From IMG/VR virus record IMGVR_UViG_3300050821_001428, positions 32,001 through 96,000 of that record: a stretch of DNA of 64,000 nt; one strand, 5' to 3'. Source of the stretch: a virus. Under the pieces are notes generated by a model. It did no database searches. It worked only from the letters and a program-made list of their open reading frames with translations, and was not told where the DNA came from. The position numbers and the translations under genes are program-made. Below are positions 10,152 to 38,411 of the stretch, piece by piece; position 1 is the first letter of the stretch, and every line of letters begins with the position of its first letter.

Positions 10152-10462
10152 TTTTCCTAGCTCCTATTAGCCGCCGTTCTGGTTTATGCTAACATCTGTC
10201 TCGGGTTACCCCGGCCACGGCATTATCCGTAAACGTGGTCTATCTCCACGATGGCTGCCCTCTACCTTGTGACCTTAGTTTCCCTTAGGTCAGCATCTTG
10301 AGGTCATATCATATGCCGACTAGCTAGGTTCAAACGGATTTCCCCTCCCTGATCTAGTCTCATCTTTACCGGCTTGATTAGGGCCGATCCCCTTTCAGGG
10401 ACACGATAAGGCGAACTTCCTCGATGGATTGGTTACCGCCGCGTTAGCTCGGAACTATGAAA
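10152..10462 (-). ncRNA. rnpB: Putative RNase P RNA
   Basis: CR-I GAGGAAGUUCGCC and CR-V ACCAGAACGGCGGCUAAU form P4 with a bulged U. P1 UAGUUCC/GGAGCUA. P2 GCUAAC/GUUAGC preceded by CR-IV-like ACAGAU. Confidence 0.8.
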
Positions 10463-12731: not shown

Positions 12732-13433
12732 TTAGGCTAGAGTTTCAACCCGATCGTAATCGTACTCCGATAGAGAGTATGCACCCTTGGTAGAAAGGAA
12801 CCCTCCTTTTACATGGTCGTGCATAATCTGTGCTTCGTATACCTGTCCTTCTTCTCCCGAAAGGGCTAATTCGTAAATCTTAGGATGCTCTTCCTTTAGT
12901 TCATCTAGCAACTTCTGGGCAAATATACGTTCATGATCCCTTAGATAAGGAACAATGCTCTTCCCGGTACCATCTCCACGGTAATGAAGGTCACGGTGCC
13001 GTCCGACGCACAGAGGAATCGTACAAACAGATCTAGCAGCATAGCTAACGTAGTTATCAAGCTCCTTCATAAGCCATCTAGGGATGAAGTGATGCCTAGT
13101 AATCCGACCTTCACATTCCCATCCATGTATAGCACAGATGCGGCAGGTTGGCTGGATTTGGGACTCGATCTTACGTAATCGGCGGCGTTCAAGAATCTCA
13201 GGAGGAACTACAATAGTATTAGAAGCTAACCTTAGACGAAATAAGACCTGCTTTTGTGTAAGCCCTTCATCCAATAGATCATCTAATTCTGCATCCTCAT
13301 AGTCGGCAAGAAGTTCCAATTGCTCTACTGTAGCCCGACTTTTTTGATCAAACCAAAAGACTTGGTTAGAACGCGGATCATCAAACCAACGAGCGCGAGA
13401 CATGAACTCTCCTTTCCTAAATTCGGGTTGCAA
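12732..13433 (-). CDS. HNH-type nuclease domain protein
   Basis: CRIC...ITRHHFIPR...TIPLCVGRHRDLH; likely start at MSRARW. Confidence 0.65.
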   Translation of the reverse strand: MQPEFRKGEFMSRARWFDDPRSNQVFWFDQKSRATVEQLELLADYEDAELDDLLDEGLTQKQVLFRLRLASNTIVVPPEILERRRLRKIESQIQPTCRICAIHGWECEGRITRHHFIPRWLMKELDNYVSYAARSVCTIPLCVGRHRDLHYRGDGTGKSIVPYLRDHERIFAQKLLDELKEEHPKIYELALSGEEGQVYEAQIMHDHVKGGFLSTKGAYSLSEYDYDRVETLA

Positions 13434-15522: not shown

Positions 15523-15794
15523 TTATCAGGCCGGATTACGACCCTACAACGCTCCAAGGTTTGAGGTTATCGCACGATCCGCCCGGTTCCTGCGCTCCCT
15601 CTTAGTAGGCCCAGATACCCTGGGTTCGGTGCGAGAATTTTGGCCCGGCGTGTTCCGGATCAAGTCTCGCCCGACAGCACTGTGCCGGTTCGTCATGAAA
15701 ATCATGTAGCACATGTGTTGGGCGGCAAGTTCGATAACTTCAAACCTTGGAGCGTTGTAGGGGAAGCTTTTCAAGGCTCGCATTTTCCTGACAA
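15523..15794 (-). ncRNA. Unknown structured RNA with a 31-bp stem and 44-nt identity to the resolvase gene
   Basis: Inverted repeat 15542-15572 / 15732-15762 (30/31), outer 8-bp stem 15523-15530 / 15787-15794. 15686-15729 is identical to 38080-38123. Strand inferred from flanking tRNAs. Confidence 0.7.
15686..15729 (+). repeat. 44-bp exact direct repeat, copy 1 (copy 2 at 38080-38123)
   Basis: CGGTTCGTCATGAAAATCATGTAGCACATGTGTTGGGCGGCAAG is present at both loci. Confidence 0.97.
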
Positions 15795-16206: not shown

Positions 16207-16649
16207 AAGTGTACGTTCCCGATGACAATTTAACACACTACTTCGCACTTGGCTATTTCTTCAAACAGCATAACTTCAGAGCGTCGAGTCGGGGAGCAGC
16301 ACTGCGTGACGCGCGCGTCCCACCTGCTGCTCGCGGATCATCATCGCGGACGGCATCTCGACGCACGGCAACCGACGACAACGGCTCCTGGGAGCCGTAC
16401 TGATCGAAGAAGCCGATCCGAATGCGCTTCTGGAGCGCACGATCACCGTAGTCAGTCATCAGAACGTGAAGTGTATGCCGTTGTCGGAATCCCGCCAGCC
16501 ACAGCTAGTTTACCAGAACTCATACGCGTAAGCCCTGGTCGAGAATAATATACATCACCGGATTCATATCTACAGTATAGCATATCAGACTAGAGTCGCC
16601 AACTTATGGTGACTCCTCATGCTCCTTCCGCCACAAGGTGGATGAGTCA

Positions 16650-16913: not shown

Positions 16914-16986
16914 CTGCTCAGATAGGACTTGAACCTATAACCATCGCCTTAACAGGGCGTTGCACCGCCAATTGTGCTACTGAGCA
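16914..16986 (-). tRNA. tRNA-Asn(GTT)
   Basis: CGCC-CTGTTAA-GGCG arm. Confidence 0.9.
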
Positions 16987-17173
16987 TTGTTATTCCATCT
17001 TCAACTTCCATGTGACAATTTGAACATAATAAAATACATTTACTAGCTTCTGCTCTCATTTTAGCTAATCCAGGGATTTTACCCTTCCATGCTAAATGGA
17101 ACAACTTCGTAGTGGGATCTATATGGTGAAAATGTAAGGCTCTCATACATTTATCATATCCGCAAATCACACA
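16949..17173 (-). pseudogene. 5'-truncated HNH endonuclease
   Basis: CVICGY...LHFHHIDP..K...KCILLCSNCH. An in-frame TAG lies just upstream and the 3' end runs into tRNA-Asn. Confidence 0.65.
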
Positions 17174-18046: not shown

Positions 18047-18057
18047 TTTTCCTTAAG

Positions 18058-18427
18058 TGGACCTGCTCGCATCGAAGCGAGGTGGCCCGTAATCGTCATC
18101 AGAGATTTAGTATAGCATCTTTCTAGGACAAGAGTTACTTCAAGGACAAGCAGAGCTTGTCTCCACCAACTTAGTCTACATCTTAGGGGCGACTAGTAAC
18201 CCCGATTCCTATGCTTCTGTTGACAGGTGCATAGACCCCGTTCTGGCTATTTAAGCAAGAACAGAAAGAACTTCACTTGCACGGATCTCGCTCTTTGCAG
18301 AGAAAGCGCCAGCAGGGATGTTCATAGGACGATATGATTCGCCAGTTAATTGTTTTGCGAGATTTAGGTGTCTCAAAACCGATGCAATTCTTAATTCGTT
18401 TTTACGAGATCGAAACCTTTCAGGCCC
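18058..18427 (-). ncRNA. ssrA: tmRNA
   Basis: 5' GGGCCTGAAAGGTTTCGA; 3' T arm CTCGC-TTCGAT-GCGAG then CAGGTCC-A (G3-U70, Ala identity). Tag frame after TTAACT at 18343-18251. Confidence 0.88.
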
Positions 18428-18462
18428 GTTGAAGAGAGGCAGCTTGTAATTGTAATTTGCTA

Positions 18463-18882
18463 TCATTTTTTACGTTGGTCGATACGTCTACACTCTTTGC
18501 ATTTATGTCTAGGTCTAAATGACCCATCTTTATTTGGCTCAGTATGTAAACTAAAATTATCCACAGGCAAAAATTGCTGATGCCCATGACACCACCACAT
18601 CCCTTCGGGATAATTGTTTTTATGTGGTGCTTGATTTCTTTTAATATTACAATTAAGATGTGAAAATGCAATGTTATCTAAATCCCAAAATAGATCATCA
18701 GGATTTTGAAGCCAAGGGATTTTGTGTTCAACAGATAATTCCTGAGCACACTCAATCGGTTTTTCACATACAAAACAAATATCTCTTCCGCTCTGTTGTA
18801 CAAGTTGGAAAAATATTTGTTTTCTGAGTCGAGCATAGGCAGTTGTAGTATACATACCTAACATGCTACGATAGCGTTCCAA
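18463..18882 (-). CDS. HNH endonuclease (start uncertain)
   Basis: CFVC...LSVEHKIPW...LDNIAFSHLNCN plus C-terminal Zn finger. The in-frame upstream ATG (18903) is followed by AAA TAA. Confidence 0.7.
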   Translation of the reverse strand: MERYRSMLGMYTTTAYARLRKQIFFQLVQQSGRDICFVCEKPIECAQELSVEHKIPWLQNPDDLFWDLDNIAFSHLNCNIKRNQAPHKNNYPEGMWWCHGHQQFLPVDNFSLHTEPNKDGSFRPRHKCKECRRIDQRKK

Positions 18883-18917
18883 AGATTTAGATTCTTATTT
18901 CATCATCTATTATATCT

Positions 18918-19008
18918 ATGGACTATTACATTTCTGTAACTATAACGGTCCTAAGTAGAAATCCTACCTACACGGTAATAGCGTAACATAACTTCGAACG
19001 CTGCCCAT
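18918..19008 (-). ncRNA. Putative small RNA with a loop complementary to 23S rRNA helix 69
   Basis: Nested stems AUGGGC/GUCCAU, UAUUAC/GUAAUA, AUUUCU/AGAAAU. The loop contains the reverse complement of GTAACTATAACGGTCCTAAG (18936-18955). Confidence 0.6.
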
Positions 19009-19024
19009 TTTTGCTACCTCTCAG

Positions 19025-19096
19025 TAGACAGAGAGGGATTCGAACCCTCAACCTCCCGCATGTCAAGCGGGTGCGCTACCATTGCGCTATCCGTCT
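19025..19096 (-). tRNA. tRNA-Val(GAC)
   Basis: CCCGC-TTGACAT-GCGGG arm. Confidence 0.9.
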
Positions 19097-20388: not shown

Positions 20389-21120
20389 ATGAAAATTAAA
20401 ACTGTTGAAGTTGTTTGTGATGGTTGTGGTCAACTTTTTGACCGATATATAGGCGAAGTAAAACGTTCTCAACGCAAACATATGAAAATGTATTGCGCGC
20501 AATCTTGCACAGCAAGATATCGTGTCCGACCCATTACTATACACGAACCTAATGTAATCTGCGCCCATTGTAATAAAGCATTTTACAAAAACCCCTCATC
20601 TTTGAGTAATTCAAAATCTGGCTTATTCTTCTGTTGTCGGGAGCACAAAGATATATCGCAACGTATAGGTAATTTACACGCGATACGGGAGATAATGCCC
20701 AATCATTATGGAACAGATCCCAATAAAAATATTAATTATAGAAAACTTGCTTTCGATCATTTACCTAATGAATGTGAAATTTGTCAATGGAAGGAATATC
20801 CCAATGTTTTAATTGTTCATCACAAAGATCGAAACAGGAATAATAATGTCCTCGAAAATTTACAAATTATTTGTCCAACACATCATGATGTAGACCATTA
20901 TTTACAAAAGGATGGACGCTTTACAACAGGACGCCGTCATACCGGAATCAATCGCTCTCAAATCAAATGGCCACCCATTCCTTGGCTTTTAGAACGTTCT
21001 AATCAAATTGGAGTCCGTCAGACCGCGCTTGAGATTAATGTATCAGATACTGGTTTACGTCACTATTTACGTAGAAATGGTATTGACCCACCAGATTTTC
21101 GAGGTAGAAAACATACATAA
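20389..21120 (+). CDS. HNH homing endonuclease with Zn-finger N-terminus (inverted relative to tRNA array)
   Basis: CEICQW...LIVHHKDRNRNNNVLENLQIICPTHH; SD AAGGA upstream. Confidence 0.85.
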   Translation: MKIKTVEVVCDGCGQLFDRYIGEVKRSQRKHMKMYCAQSCTARYRVRPITIHEPNVICAHCNKAFYKNPSSLSNSKSGLFFCCREHKDISQRIGNLHAIREIMPNHYGTDPNKNINYRKLAFDHLPNECEICQWKEYPNVLIVHHKDRNRNNNVLENLQIICPTHHDVDHYLQKDGRFTTGRRHTGINRSQIKWPPIPWLLERSNQIGVRQTALEINVSDTGLRHYLRRNGIDPPDFRGRKHT

Positions 21121-21247: not shown

Positions 21248-21934
21248 TCAATTTTCAATCTTCGTTACTTTAATACCAAGTTGACCCGCTTGATATCGCA
21301 TTTTAACATAAGTATGAGCGTTTGTCAAGCTTACTCCAGATTTTATCGCACCATGGAGACTTTTATGGTGCTGACGACAAATCGGTACAACATCTTCAAA
21401 TTTTTCATGCCCTAATCTTACATATGTATGGTGATGTAAATCATATGATTCATCCCCACATACGAAACAAAACTTTAATGTTCCACTATTAGCAACATAG
21501 GCTGTTTTAAATTCTTTCCAATGATCCGAATCGAGATATTCTTTATATTCCTCTCTAGTCATTGAGGGTGGACACACAGCTACTTGTGCTGCTGCGGCAC
21601 GCCTGCGCTTTAAGCTTTTTTCATGTACTACAGGAAAAAATGCTAATTTTTTAGCACGGGTAGTGTGTCTACGCCTGCTGCGATTCTTCATTTTACTTAC
21701 TTGTAAAGGGCTTTTATATGGATGTTTGGAGATTTCCTCCAAAACTAACATACGTAGTTCTTTAGGCACATCCATAATATCTACATGAATCATACATGTA
21801 GATTCACGATACAGCGAATCTACATGCTTTGGAGCAAAAATCACCAAGGGACGCTCGCGCCCGCATGTTTTGCAATATTTGCTTTTCTTAGTAGGGATAA
21901 ATGATTTACTCATAATCAAAATTCCTATGCTCAT
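21248..21934 (-). CDS. HNH endonuclease
   Basis: YLDSDHW...CFVCG...DLHHHTYVRLGHE..EDVVPICRQHH. Confidence 0.75.
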   Translation of the reverse strand: MSIGILIMSKSFIPTKKSKYCKTCGRERPLVIFAPKHVDSLYRESTCMIHVDIMDVPKELRMLVLEEISKHPYKSPLQVSKMKNRSRRRHTTRAKKLAFFPVVHEKSLKRRRAAAAQVAVCPPSMTREEYKEYLDSDHWKEFKTAYVANSGTLKFCFVCGDESYDLHHHTYVRLGHEKFEDVVPICRQHHKSLHGAIKSGVSLTNAHTYVKMRYQAGQLGIKVTKIEN

Positions 21935-23389: not shown

Positions 23390-26300
23390 TTATAAGATTT
23401 CGCATCCTCCATTAGCACTACACGCTAATTCTTGTGAGCCTGTCGTATAATCCTCACTCTCGTACAAGGTTAGCAGGTTCCAATCAATCTTGGATGGCAT
23501 CTCGTTTACTAGTTCAAGGTATGTATCCCGATCAATCTCTTGATAAGGTGCCTGTTGGTAACTACCATTATCAAATGGTAGGAAACTAACACCAGACATC
23601 TTATCAAAGTGGTTATATACAAAGACACCTACCTCGTCCCACTCGTTATCACGTACATATACGGTGATTGATGGCTTATGCTCGCACCAATGCTCCGCAT
23701 AAGCCAACCATAGTTTCAACTGATCTATAGCTGTAATATCATTACGGAGAATAGCACGATCTGGTGACTTGATAGGATATGAAAATACCATAGTCTCATC
23801 TGGCTTCATTACATCGTCTTCAGTTGGGATACCTTGCATGTATAGGAACTGGGAGATAGGATCAATCTTATTACCGCGATTGGTACGAATATAGTATTCG
23901 GAGTAGCGTGGGTGAATGCCCGATGCTGCATCCACTAGCTGTGATACGGTCCCACTGGGTTTACAACAGGTGATTGCGGTTGATTGGTTGATGCCAAGTA
24001 ACCTGGCCCATTTTTCGTTCTCTTCGATCGCGCATTCCTGTAGATAACCCAGACGCTCCGCTAGATCAGGATCATTATGATCTGATAGCAATGGGCAATC
24101 CATGATCCCTGTAATAGATACACCGAGTAAGCGTTCTTCTTCACAGTTCTCGCGCCACTTGTCCGACAAGTAACGGAAATCTGTAAATGTACTCTGAATA
24201 GTTCCGACTATGGTAGCTAATCTAACCTTCTGTTCTAGGGTTTGATTAGTATCGTCATGCCTTGCTACTACTTCGGACAGATTACACATCTGTCTATCTC
24301 TCAAAATGATTTCTGAATTGTGAGCAAAAATACCATTGGCATCAAAGGCATGAACATCCGATACTTCAGCGTCCCACACTTCGCCCACACGTACAAACTC
24401 AAATGACTCCATTGCGGATTCAAAGCGCTTCTCATAAAAGGTCGTAGTAGCCACAATATGCTTTAGCTGAGCCATCTTCTTAAGATGGGAGAACCCCACG
24501 CGCTGGGCATATACCTCGATATCACTTGAAGAAATTACCAACCGCCAACTAGCCTTGGTTGGGTATTCGCGTGATCCCCCCCGACCATCTGGCAATACCG
24601 AGACACCCTTGTCCTTTGCTCGATAAATACGCGATTTGATACCTAGACGCAGTAACATACGCTGTATAGCCTTAAGATCGGTCAGATCAGACTGGCTTAA
24701 GCGAATAGACCATCCCTTAGTTGCATTACCTTCGATATGACCATCAGCATCGAACAGGCCACGCAAGAATCCTTCATGAAAAGCCGAAGAAGTAAGCTCT
24801 ACGTCCTCATTGATATGCTTATTACCCCAATCCATACCAAATTTCTGAGGTAGTCTACCGATAGACATGCGCCTATAGAGTCTGCAATCTCCGCAGCCAT
24901 TCCAATCCGAACGATGCGGTAATTCATCACCAGCTATACGAGCCGTCTCCGCGATACCCACGCTGCCTTGATCGTTGTGCCAGGTCTTCACCTCGCCTCT
25001 AGCCCCGGTGCGAGGGTTTATGAAATTACCATCGCCTAAGAATAGCCCCAATAGATACCCTTCATTCCATGTACCATCCCCTCTCCATGAGAGCATCCCA
25101 TGATTCTGAATAAGCACAAGGTCGTCCGATGTTAGATGCTGTGCTTCCACCCAACCACGATTAGAGGTCTTGATGCGATGTTCTGGTGTAAGTTCAAGTT
25201 CGTAACCAGCCTTCAGAGTAAGGCGATAGATTTCTCCTTCACCGCTAACCCATGACCCATGCGGGGCATCGTATTCTCTGCCGGTGACCAGCGCCTTGAA
25301 TGGAATATCTAGCAAAGAATCGATACGACGAGGACCATCTATAGTCATGATAATAGTATCTGGAGCAAGACAGCATGGATTAGTCCCGAAGGCATAATTG
25401 GCATCGCGCCTAAAATTGCGACGTGCTTGTTCTTGCATACCTGTACGATTTATGATACCACGTTCGCCGGATTGAGAATCCCGCAACGATTGCCATTCCC
25501 GAGCGAATATATCAAGAGCCGGGCGACCATCCCATACCGCACTATTATTAGCTAGACGATATTCCGGATGGTCTATCCACCATTCTCCCTGCTTAGCATC
25601 GCGCATATCTAGATCATCCGGATCAGATAGCGAGATGAGAGCAGCACGACGGACACCGCCTACTACTACGATATCACCAATCTTGCACATGATACCGTGA
25701 CATTCAAGAGAAGTTAATTTGCGCCCTTGAGCGTCCTTGAAGATGCTAACAACGTATTGAAATAAATCCGTTAGTGGTTCTGGACCCGATGCGCTACCTC
25801 CGAATGTTTTAAGCCTAGAACCCGCAGGACGAACGAGGGATACATCCCAGGTAGGTATGCCTCCCTTATATAACTCACTGATCAATTGACGTAGGGCTGT
25901 GGCCCAACCAATCTTAGAATCCTCTACGACGATAGTCAAATTAGAATTCTGTAGGTAAGGAATTTCTGGCAATCGGTTTGTGTAACCTCTCTCAACCGAG
26001 AATCCCACCCCGGTACCGCAGCACAGGATATATAGGGCTTCATCAAAGGCTTCAATGCGATTAATAGCCAGGTAGGAACAATTATACCCAGCGACATTAT
26101 CTCTTTCAAGGGCTGGTCCCGCCGTTGTCATAGCCCGCATAGAGGGCATGATCTCTAAACCCAAAATTTTCCCTGTAATGCTTTCGCTAACGTCCTCCCA
26201 AAGACTTGGATCAATCCCTAATTCACTTATCTTACGTGTAAGCTGATTTACATAACGATCTACAGTTTCGTTCCAATGCTCTCTACGTTCTAAATCATAG

Positions 26301-26404
26301 TCCCAGCGAGCATACTTGGTCTTATGGATTTGCTGCTGATATAAGGTCGGTAAAACATGCTGATCTACATCATTTTTCTCTAAATCTATACTACTTACTT
26401 CCAT
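23390..26404 (-). CDS. nrdJ: Class II (B12-dependent) ribonucleotide reductase with intein
   Basis: MPSMR, GYNCSY, GGVRRAA, TNPC/SEI, KPSGTVS and C-terminal ELACSANGGCEI. Confidence 0.92.
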   Translation of the reverse strand: MEVSSIDLEKNDVDQHVLPTLYQQQIHKTKYARWDYDLERREHWNETVDRYVNQLTRKISELGIDPSLWEDVSESITGKILGLEIMPSMRAMTTAGPALERDNVAGYNCSYLAINRIEAFDEALYILCCGTGVGFSVERGYTNRLPEIPYLQNSNLTIVVEDSKIGWATALRQLISELYKGGIPTWDVSLVRPAGSRLKTFGGSASGPEPLTDLFQYVVSIFKDAQGRKLTSLECHGIMCKIGDIVVVGGVRRAALISLSDPDDLDMRDAKQGEWWIDHPEYRLANNSAVWDGRPALDIFAREWQSLRDSQSGERGIINRTGMQEQARRNFRRDANYAFGTNPCCLAPDTIIMTIDGPRRIDSLLDIPFKALVTGREYDAPHGSWVSGEGEIYRLTLKAGYELELTPEHRIKTSNRGWVEAQHLTSDDLVLIQNHGMLSWRGDGTWNEGYLLGLFLGDGNFINPRTGARGEVKTWHNDQGSVGIAETARIAGDELPHRSDWNGCGDCRLYRRMSIGRLPQKFGMDWGNKHINEDVELTSSAFHEGFLRGLFDADGHIEGNATKGWSIRLSQSDLTDLKAIQRMLLRLGIKSRIYRAKDKGVSVLPDGRGGSREYPTKASWRLVISSSDIEVYAQRVGFSHLKKMAQLKHIVATTTFYEKRFESAMESFEFVRVGEVWDAEVSDVHAFDANGIFAHNSEIILRDRQMCNLSEVVARHDDTNQTLEQKVRLATIVGTIQSTFTDFRYLSDKWRENCEEERLLGVSITGIMDCPLLSDHNDPDLAERLGYLQECAIEENEKWARLLGINQSTAITCCKPSGTVSQLVDAASGIHPRYSEYYIRTNRGNKIDPISQFLYMQGIPTEDDVMKPDETMVFSYPIKSPDRAILRNDITAIDQLKLWLAYAEHWCEHKPSITVYVRDNEWDEVGVFVYNHFDKMSGVSFLPFDNGSYQQAPYQEIDRDTYLELVNEMPSKIDWNLLTLYESEDYTTGSQELACSANGGCEIL
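24317..25372 (-). mobile_element. Intein in NrdJ (352 aa) with LAGLIDADG endonuclease
   Basis: CLAPDT...LTPEH...LLGLFLGDG...LRGLFDADG...FAHN followed by S. Confidence 0.92.
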
Positions 26405-38048: not shown

Positions 38049-38411
38049 ATGGCTCATAGAGGGACTAAAAAAGAGCTATCGGTTCGTCATGAAAATCATG
38101 TAGCACATGTGTTGGGCGGCAAGCGTAGTAAGTCGTCGGGGGCATCTGTAACCGATAAGGGCGATGTTCGCGCTAATGACCTTGTTATAGAGTGTAAAAT
38201 GACAATGGGTCGCCTACCTACTTTTATAAGACAATTTGAAAAGGTTGCATCAGAAGCGTATGAAGAAGGGTTAACGCCCATGATGACACTTCGGTATTAT
38301 GATCCCGTTAGTATCATCTCTGATACTAACGGTTGGATAGATATAGCTGTTATGCTTTTGGGTGACGCCGGTGAACGAGAGGAAATATTTTATGCCGATA
38401 AAATTCGATAA
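38049..38411 (+). CDS. Holliday junction resolvase (PD-(D/E)XK)
   Basis: HE..VA..LGG...SGA....KGDV.....IECK. Confidence 0.75.
   Translation: MAHRGTKKELSVRHENHVAHVLGGKRSKSSGASVTDKGDVRANDLVIECKMTMGRLPTFIRQFEKVASEAYEEGLTPMMTLRYYDPVSIISDTNGWIDIAVMLLGDAGEREEIFYADKIR
38080..38123 (+). repeat. 44-bp exact direct repeat, copy 2 (codons 11-25 of the resolvase)
   Basis: Identical to 15686-15729. Confidence 0.97.

Follow-up and report, generated by a model that had tools for sequence, protein, structure and literature searches.

The tRNA array of the phage studied here encodes, between a tRNA gene and the tmRNA gene, a conserved RNA that folds and is about 90 bases long. Its least variable bases are complementary to helix 69 and its neighbour in the 23S rRNA of the host. 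Because it is the least variable bases that form this complement, the phage probably grips the large ribosomal subunit of its host by means of RNA. Judged from sequence, pairing of the RNA with 23S rRNA in some form is likely. Our main reading, with a probability of roughly 0.6, is more specific: the RNA would pair with free or immature 50S subunits and keep them from joining 30S subunits. The features of the locus are listed below, with positions in the window, i.e. the whole stretch of 64,000 nucleotides that was analysed.

18918..19008, minus strand: small RNA with closing stem, arm 1, arm 2 and an exposed anti-helix-69 strand; same fold in homologues L301-L303 and L305 (z about -5)
18936..18955, minus strand: exact 20-base complement of 23S 1910-1929 (duplex -33 kcal/mol)
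18936-18950, minus strand: 15-mer complementary to 1910-1924, invariant in all homologues (homologue alignment)
18952..18970, minus strand: arm 2 hairpin, with a different stem sequence in each homologue
18958-18963, minus strand: GAUUUC, the invariant tip of arm 2, complementary to 23S ~1935-1940 (loop 70)
18980..19002, minus strand: arm 1 hairpin AGCGU/ACGCU, nearly invariant
18987-18998, minus strand: arm 1 loop bases, with 12 possible pairs to 23S helix 62 (~1686-1697), suggestive only
19003..19008, minus strand: 5' strand of the closing stem, partner 18918-18923 (6 pairs here)
19024..19096, minus strand: tRNA-Val(GAC), directly upstream of the element; a tRNA-Val precedes every homologue
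18463..18882, minus strand: HNH endonuclease gene, free-standing, inserted in this genome alone and outside the system
18057..18430, minus strand: tmRNA, missed by ARAGORN; its ends pair, and the same tag reading is called tmRNA in L304 and L305

The identity of the plus-strand 20-mer at 18936-18955 with 23S rRNA 1910-1929 (E. coli-type numbering), which an earlier note on this DNA had reported, is exact. The 20-mer occurs once in the 144,267-base phage genome and is the longest exact match between this genome and 23S rRNA; the next has 14 bases, and the longest matches of ten shuffled genomes had 13-17. Within a minus-strand array of 30 tRNAs, the 20-mer follows tRNA-Val(GAC) at a distance of 68 bases. 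The flanking tRNAs and the tmRNA all share this strand, as noted earlier, and in this genome the element is followed by the HNH gene and then the tmRNA.

The phage is an uncultured 144-kb myovirus of the Bxz1 type, and is actinobacterial. The mycobacteriophages Myrna and Phabba have capsid proteins with 54% identity to that of this phage, and a 72% relative is a provirus in Candidatus Solirubrobacter pratensis. Based on these relatives, we infer that the host is probably an actinobacterium outside the Actinomycetia. Helix 69 occurs in Actinomycetota in three versions at 1921-1922 (GG, CA and CG), and the element best fits the GG version, with a duplex of -39 kcal/mol versus -33 and -29 kcal/mol for the other versions. 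E. coli has the same helix 69 as the predicted target.

Homologues were reached through the metallophosphoesterase gene downstream of the tmRNA, which led to Logan contigs from four sequencing runs. They belong to two other phage lineages, L301-L303 being one and L305 the other (elements at L301:297-413 and L305:2249-2364), and amount to only three distinct homologous sequences. Runs SRR33270693, SRR14320033, SRR25885106 and SRR29078117 identify samples that contain this phage or those of L301 and L305. The claims made here do not draw on G052, G082 and G122, which are unpublished genomes. In each homologous locus the gene order is tRNA-Val, element, tmRNA and metallophosphoesterase. No gene separates the element from the tmRNA directly downstream, the element starts at most 2 bases from the end of the tRNA, and it stops about 5 bases short of the tmRNA. 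Between this genome and L301, identity is 81% in the core of the element, but 60% in the tmRNA and 57% in the metallophosphoesterase gene. The invariant columns comprise AGCGUUC, GAAGUU, GUUACGCUAUU, GAUUUC and the 15-base complement of 1910-1924, and no box C/D or H/ACA motif flanking the complement is found among them. A BLAST search of the element against cultured phages matched only rRNA contaminants and a tRNA. A metagenome scan with the flanks of this copy returned just two mitochondrial-type rRNA contigs, and no Rfam family matched the element at gathering score in the window or the homologues. Since the motif is absent from more distant capsid relatives (0 of 33 records, 0 of 7 near-complete ones), the element is dispensable in the wider group, which speaks against the main reading.

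The fold differs from the one drawn in the earlier note. The three nested stems proposed there give -5.3 kcal/mol, versus -22.2 kcal/mol for the best fold. The outer stem, AUGGGC/GUCCAU, does have a counterpart in the homologues, but the two inner stems, AUUUCU/AGAAAU and UAUUAC/GUAAUA, have none, and therefore the complement does not fill a 21-base loop. Instead, 15 of its bases are exposed, while the first 5 belong to the stem of a hairpin. This arrangement of closing stem, arm 1, arm 2 and open strand is seen in L301 and L305, which fold much more stably than shuffled sequences (z -5.0 and -5.6). Although the closing stem changes its sequence with each lineage, its pairing is kept, with 6 pairs here, 14 in L301 and 13 in L305, the latter two including one G-U each. 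The arm 2 stem likewise has 7, 6 and 4 pairs in the three lineages, with differing sequences that pair throughout. The isolated element of this genome folds no better than its shuffles (z -1.4). Speaking against the main reading, its best computed fold hides the complement, the mean unpaired probability of which is 0.37, versus 0.65-0.68 in the homologues.

Helix 69 forms bridge B2a of the ribosome and is a contact of the ribosome recycling factor. Computed on a naked 23S fragment, net binding from the folded state is -15 kcal/mol for this copy and -8 kcal/mol for L301. A two-part duplex is predicted for this copy, L301 and L305, with 15-20 pairs to helix 69 and its foot, followed, after a gap of about 5 bases in the target, by a further 5-11 pairs near 1930-1941, among them those of the invariant GAUUUC tip. 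In L301, this extension pairs via G-U wobbles. Translation in E. coli is blocked by a peptide nucleic acid (PNA) directed at helix 69 (Kulik et al. 2017, as cited in PMC12828698). Loop 70 is required for the subunits to associate, and two toxins of an actinobacterium, MazF-mt3 and MazF-mt6, cleave it (PMC5408214).

A third contact may involve the loop of arm 1, for which 10-12 pairs with helix 62 (~1686-1697) are possible; the target is conserved between one proteobacterial and one Solirubrobacter 23S rRNA, and helix 62 is the best or second-best rRNA site for this loop in two homologues. However, 6% of all 8-mers are present in the rRNAs and shuffled loops did equally well in 9 of 60 and 18 of 60 trials, so that this contact is suggestive only. 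The core of the possible helix-62 complement, GAAGUUAU, is found in three non-coding RNAs of the array (window 18995, 16277 and 15741, minus strand), and three of its eight genome copies fall within 3.3 kb.

From these features, a course of events can be proposed. The small RNA gene would be co-transcribed with the phage tRNA array, and processing of tRNA-Val and of the downstream RNA (the tmRNA in the homologues) would free the element, with 3' processing of tRNA-Val setting its 5' end and the closing stem shielding its ends. The 15 exposed bases would then pair with 23S 1910-1924, and the GAUUUC tip of arm 2 would seed the pairing with loop 70, upon which arm 2 would open, giving a computed total of about 25-27 pairs over 1910-1941 with the 5-base gap. 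Arm 1 might provide a second grip, on helix 62. Because pairing opens helix 69, the target is presumably a free or still-assembling 50S subunit, which, once bound, would be kept from 70S formation. A likely use would be to withhold or redirect part of the host 50S pool during the takeover of translation. The outcome of binding is the weakest step, since a phage that supplies tRNAs and a tmRNA gains nothing obvious from blocked ribosomes.

The same consideration lends some weight to a different outcome of the same pairing, in which the RNA would protect free or immature 50S subunits at helix 69 and loop 70 from host toxins or defence nucleases, or act as a chaperone of this late-folding region, and then be released. 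All conservation evidence fits this equally, the phage otherwise invests in live translation (30 tRNAs and a tmRNA), and the arm 2 tip with its extension covers 1935-1941, in the loop 70 that the two MazF toxins cut (PMC5408214). However, the release of a duplex of 15-27 pairs, in which helix 69 is opened, would be difficult, and the most conserved block lies over helix 69 rather than the known cut site. We consider such a protective role unlikely.

Somewhat less likely still is a role for the opposite strand. A plus-strand RNA could be a sense mimic of the 50S interface, made up of the helix-69 tip, loop 70 and a UUCG-capped helix 62, and decoy proteins that bind or cleave these sites. This idea is kept in consideration because the plus-strand blocks are colinear with the rRNA and C(UUCG)G is present on the plus strand of L301 and L305. 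Furthermore, bases at 1908-1909 could pair in a helix-69-like manner in all three homologues, and this copy has a weak promoter-like site at 18886-18913 (9/12) and five T at its ends. The earlier note had held that the element cannot fold as a mimic of helix 69. In fact the plus strand allows a tip of four pairs, although an unstable one (-0.9 kcal/mol, pairing probability below 5%). In addition, this copy lacks the G that would close the UUCG loop, and no such promoter was found on the opposite strand in the homologues, where the site would fall inside the tmRNA. No Ro60 (TROVE) gene is present in this genome or five relatives, and Rfam matches to YrlA were far under the cut-off and fell on tRNAs.

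On the tRNA strand, the stems contain five G-U pairs and one A-C; counted by strand, five G-U pairs favour the tRNA strand versus one for the other, and five of the six non-Watson-Crick stem pairs would become mismatches on the plus strand. The tRNA strand is also the one along which the array's strong promoters point. Taken together, the G-U bias and the promoter direction favour an RNA that is antisense to 23S rRNA. No promoter or terminator of its own was found at the element, which in the homologues is bounded by tRNA-Val and tmRNA.

An antisense relation to helix 69 is not restricted to this locus. Exact scans of viral contigs revealed the complement outside an rRNA context at 93 loci in 47 distinct contexts, a count that includes one real rRNA gene and about three likely chance matches. 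In a pattern control, helix 69 gave 62 viral matches versus one, beyond its design record, for helix 11 at similar specificity. The scaffolds of this family are unrelated, and are found directly after capsid stop codons, at the 3' ends of ribonucleotide reductase genes, or as free-standing genes with promoter and terminator; the lineages are many but are not independent counts. In those cases where the strand can be read from a co-directional gene and a terminator, it is the transcribed one that carries the complement. A second block, TCGCTAC (anti 1930-1936), which was not part of the search pattern, is invariant in 13 sequences, and lies in the loop of a stem with all eight pairs covarying. 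Changes are allowed at the two bases opposite 1921-1922, positions that also differ among actinobacterial rRNAs. Five cultured Vibrio phages carry a 24-base complement with two G-U wobbles plus the second block. In cultured Vibrio phages, at L179:2501-2580 (HQ634156) and L180 (OR472329), the two-part anti-helix-69/70 element sits behind a small ORF. In cultured staphylococcal phages of the Sextaecvirus type, the complement is to 23S ~1928-1949 and again includes two G-U wobbles; at L267:1501-1530 (OM373549) and L268:1501-1530 (PQ358086) it lies behind a promoter-like site. This wide family on other scaffolds, together with the syntenic conservation and the strand evidence, supports the antisense-to-23S reading that the earlier note had put forward.

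A broader version of our reading is possible but doubtful. The RNA may clamp three sites of the 50S subunit that face the 30S subunit (helix 69, loop 70 and helix 62), and may be one of many independently built phage scaffolds that control ribosome joining by RNA alone, while in related phages an RNA against the 16S tail takes its place. The slot before the tmRNA is occupied in three capsid relatives by a structured RNA with GGTGATCCAG (L199 c10500-10629 in G005, L200 c13047-13289 in G009, and L293 in G008), which complements the 3' tail of 16S rRNA with 14-15 pairs (about -37 kcal/mol). There is no obvious gene behind this RNA, and none like it was seen in the array of the present genome. Right after tRNA-Val(GAC), L200 (c13200-13289) and L199 (c10570-10629) also have hairpins that resemble degenerate tRNAs and carry a UUCUAGA loop (amber anticodon).

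A scan for the pattern of the scaffold returned one tRNA-linked match, in G002, and otherwise chance matches. The G002 RNA (L198 c7785-7878) occupies the same slot, and is tRNA-shaped with an 8-pair acceptor, a short anticodon arm and a 26-base T-loop. It shares the closing-stem sequence of the element (colinear blocks in 5 of 5000 shuffles, local alignment in 101 of 5000), but a model built from the true homologues misses it and it has no anti-helix-69 strand, and it was rejected as a homologue. Its loop resembles sense 23S helix 11, matching two rRNAs at 18 of 20 positions, but this likeness was not confirmed, as none of 301 genomes matched within one mismatch.

The HNH gene is a mobile neighbour of the element. 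As stated in the earlier note, an HNH ORF (18463..18882) follows the element, and it passes the Pfam cut-off. The adjacency in this genome, and the fact that the 20-mer makes up most of the I-CeuI site, speak for the suggestion of that note that the RNA guides this nuclease to cleave rDNA or rRNA, here of the host. This is very improbable, because the element and the gene are not inherited together: at the three homologous loci the RNA lacks an HNH neighbour, and where homologues of the HNH gene occur in other tRNA arrays, the element is missing. No partner gene of HNH size is common to the ~47 other contexts of the family. The protein is small (133-139 residues), with an HNH match only, whereas nucleases of the IscB/HEARO or Cas9 type have several hundred residues with RuvC and HNH domains, versus 139 residues here. 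Those systems also combine a variable guide with a constant scaffold, while here the would-be guide is the constant part, and wobble-type changes and a strand bias would be senseless for a DNA target. Free-standing HNH genes of phage tRNA arrays, such as Myrna gp144, explain the neighbouring ORF without relation to the RNA. More HNH-like ORFs, with weak or no Pfam matches, occur in this tRNA array (window 12732-13433, 16949-17170, 20389-21120 and 21248-21934).

Finally, a chance match, captured rRNA debris, an engineered I-CeuI site or a chimeric assembly has a negligible probability despite the metagenomic origin of the record, given that the full 26-base I-CeuI site is absent (the match ends at 1929 and natural homologues keep 15-16 bases), that gene spacing across the element is identical in two other public assemblies, and that homologues from four other sequencing runs conserve the element better than the tmRNA.

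Phages are known to take over translation with proteins and tRNAs. To our knowledge, the known targets of trans-acting base-pairing sRNAs are mRNAs or other sRNAs. The element resembles such bacterial and phage sRNAs in being a short structured RNA with an exposed seed for a target RNA in trans and tolerance of G-U pairs, and its conserved seed, complementary to a target RNA, sits in a varying scaffold. It differs in its predicted target, the functional core of mature 23S rRNA, and in its location in a tRNA array, where no promoter or terminator of its own was found; within the phage genome the 20-mer is unique, and it matches 23S rRNA. SprF1 of a Staphylococcus aureus prophage (PMC8158120, PMC10579593) offers a parallel as a prophage small RNA that binds ribosomes and attenuates translation. 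It is, however, a type I antitoxin whose purine-rich 5' end acts on initiator tRNA binding, no long 23S complement is described for it, and no toxin gene pairs with our element. In Helicobacter pylori, a natural antisense RNA to the 23S-5S precursor is known (PMC6582327), but this RNA is host-encoded, acts in cis on the precursor leader and directs RNase III, while the element is viral and would act in trans on mature helix 69-70. The PNA of Kulik et al. (2017, as cited in PMC12828698) shares the target but is man-made. A natural anti-helix-69 RNA was not found in the literature searched, which covered a minor part of the subscription papers, nor is a trans-acting viral RNA against mature 23S rRNA described there, and the function proposed here is read from sequence. 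If true, base pairing of a natural RNA with the catalytic-side core of 23S rRNA would represent a new route of takeover. Nearly all bacteria have this target, which has also been proven as a site for antisense drugs, and an evolved RNA of 60-110 bases that reaches helix 69 could, if true, become a tool for ribosome assembly and an antibacterial lead. With the versions that cultured Vibrio phages carry (PWH3a-P1 on V. natriegens), a laboratory model for testing the idea is already at hand.

The array contains further RNA features. Window 15686-15729 is an exact 44-base copy of 38080-38123, which lies in one of the phage's own genes (38049-38411), and is antisense to it on the array strand; the copy is located within a long inverted repeat (15542-15584 with 15720-15762). 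A structured RNA at window 16207-16580 (minus strand) follows a promoter-like site of its own (16579), and 16280-16460 forms an island of 64% G+C in a genome of 44%. An RNase P-like RNA at window 10158-10457 (minus strand) is missed at the cut-offs by ARAGORN and Rfam, as is the tmRNA. The latter has an internal promoter-like site at 18114, which is kept in L300, L301, L304 and L305. Outside the array RNAs, the ribonucleotide reductase at 23390-26404 appears to contain an intein. The tRNA array of a close relative encodes a GOLLD RNA (L305:504-941, 170 bits).
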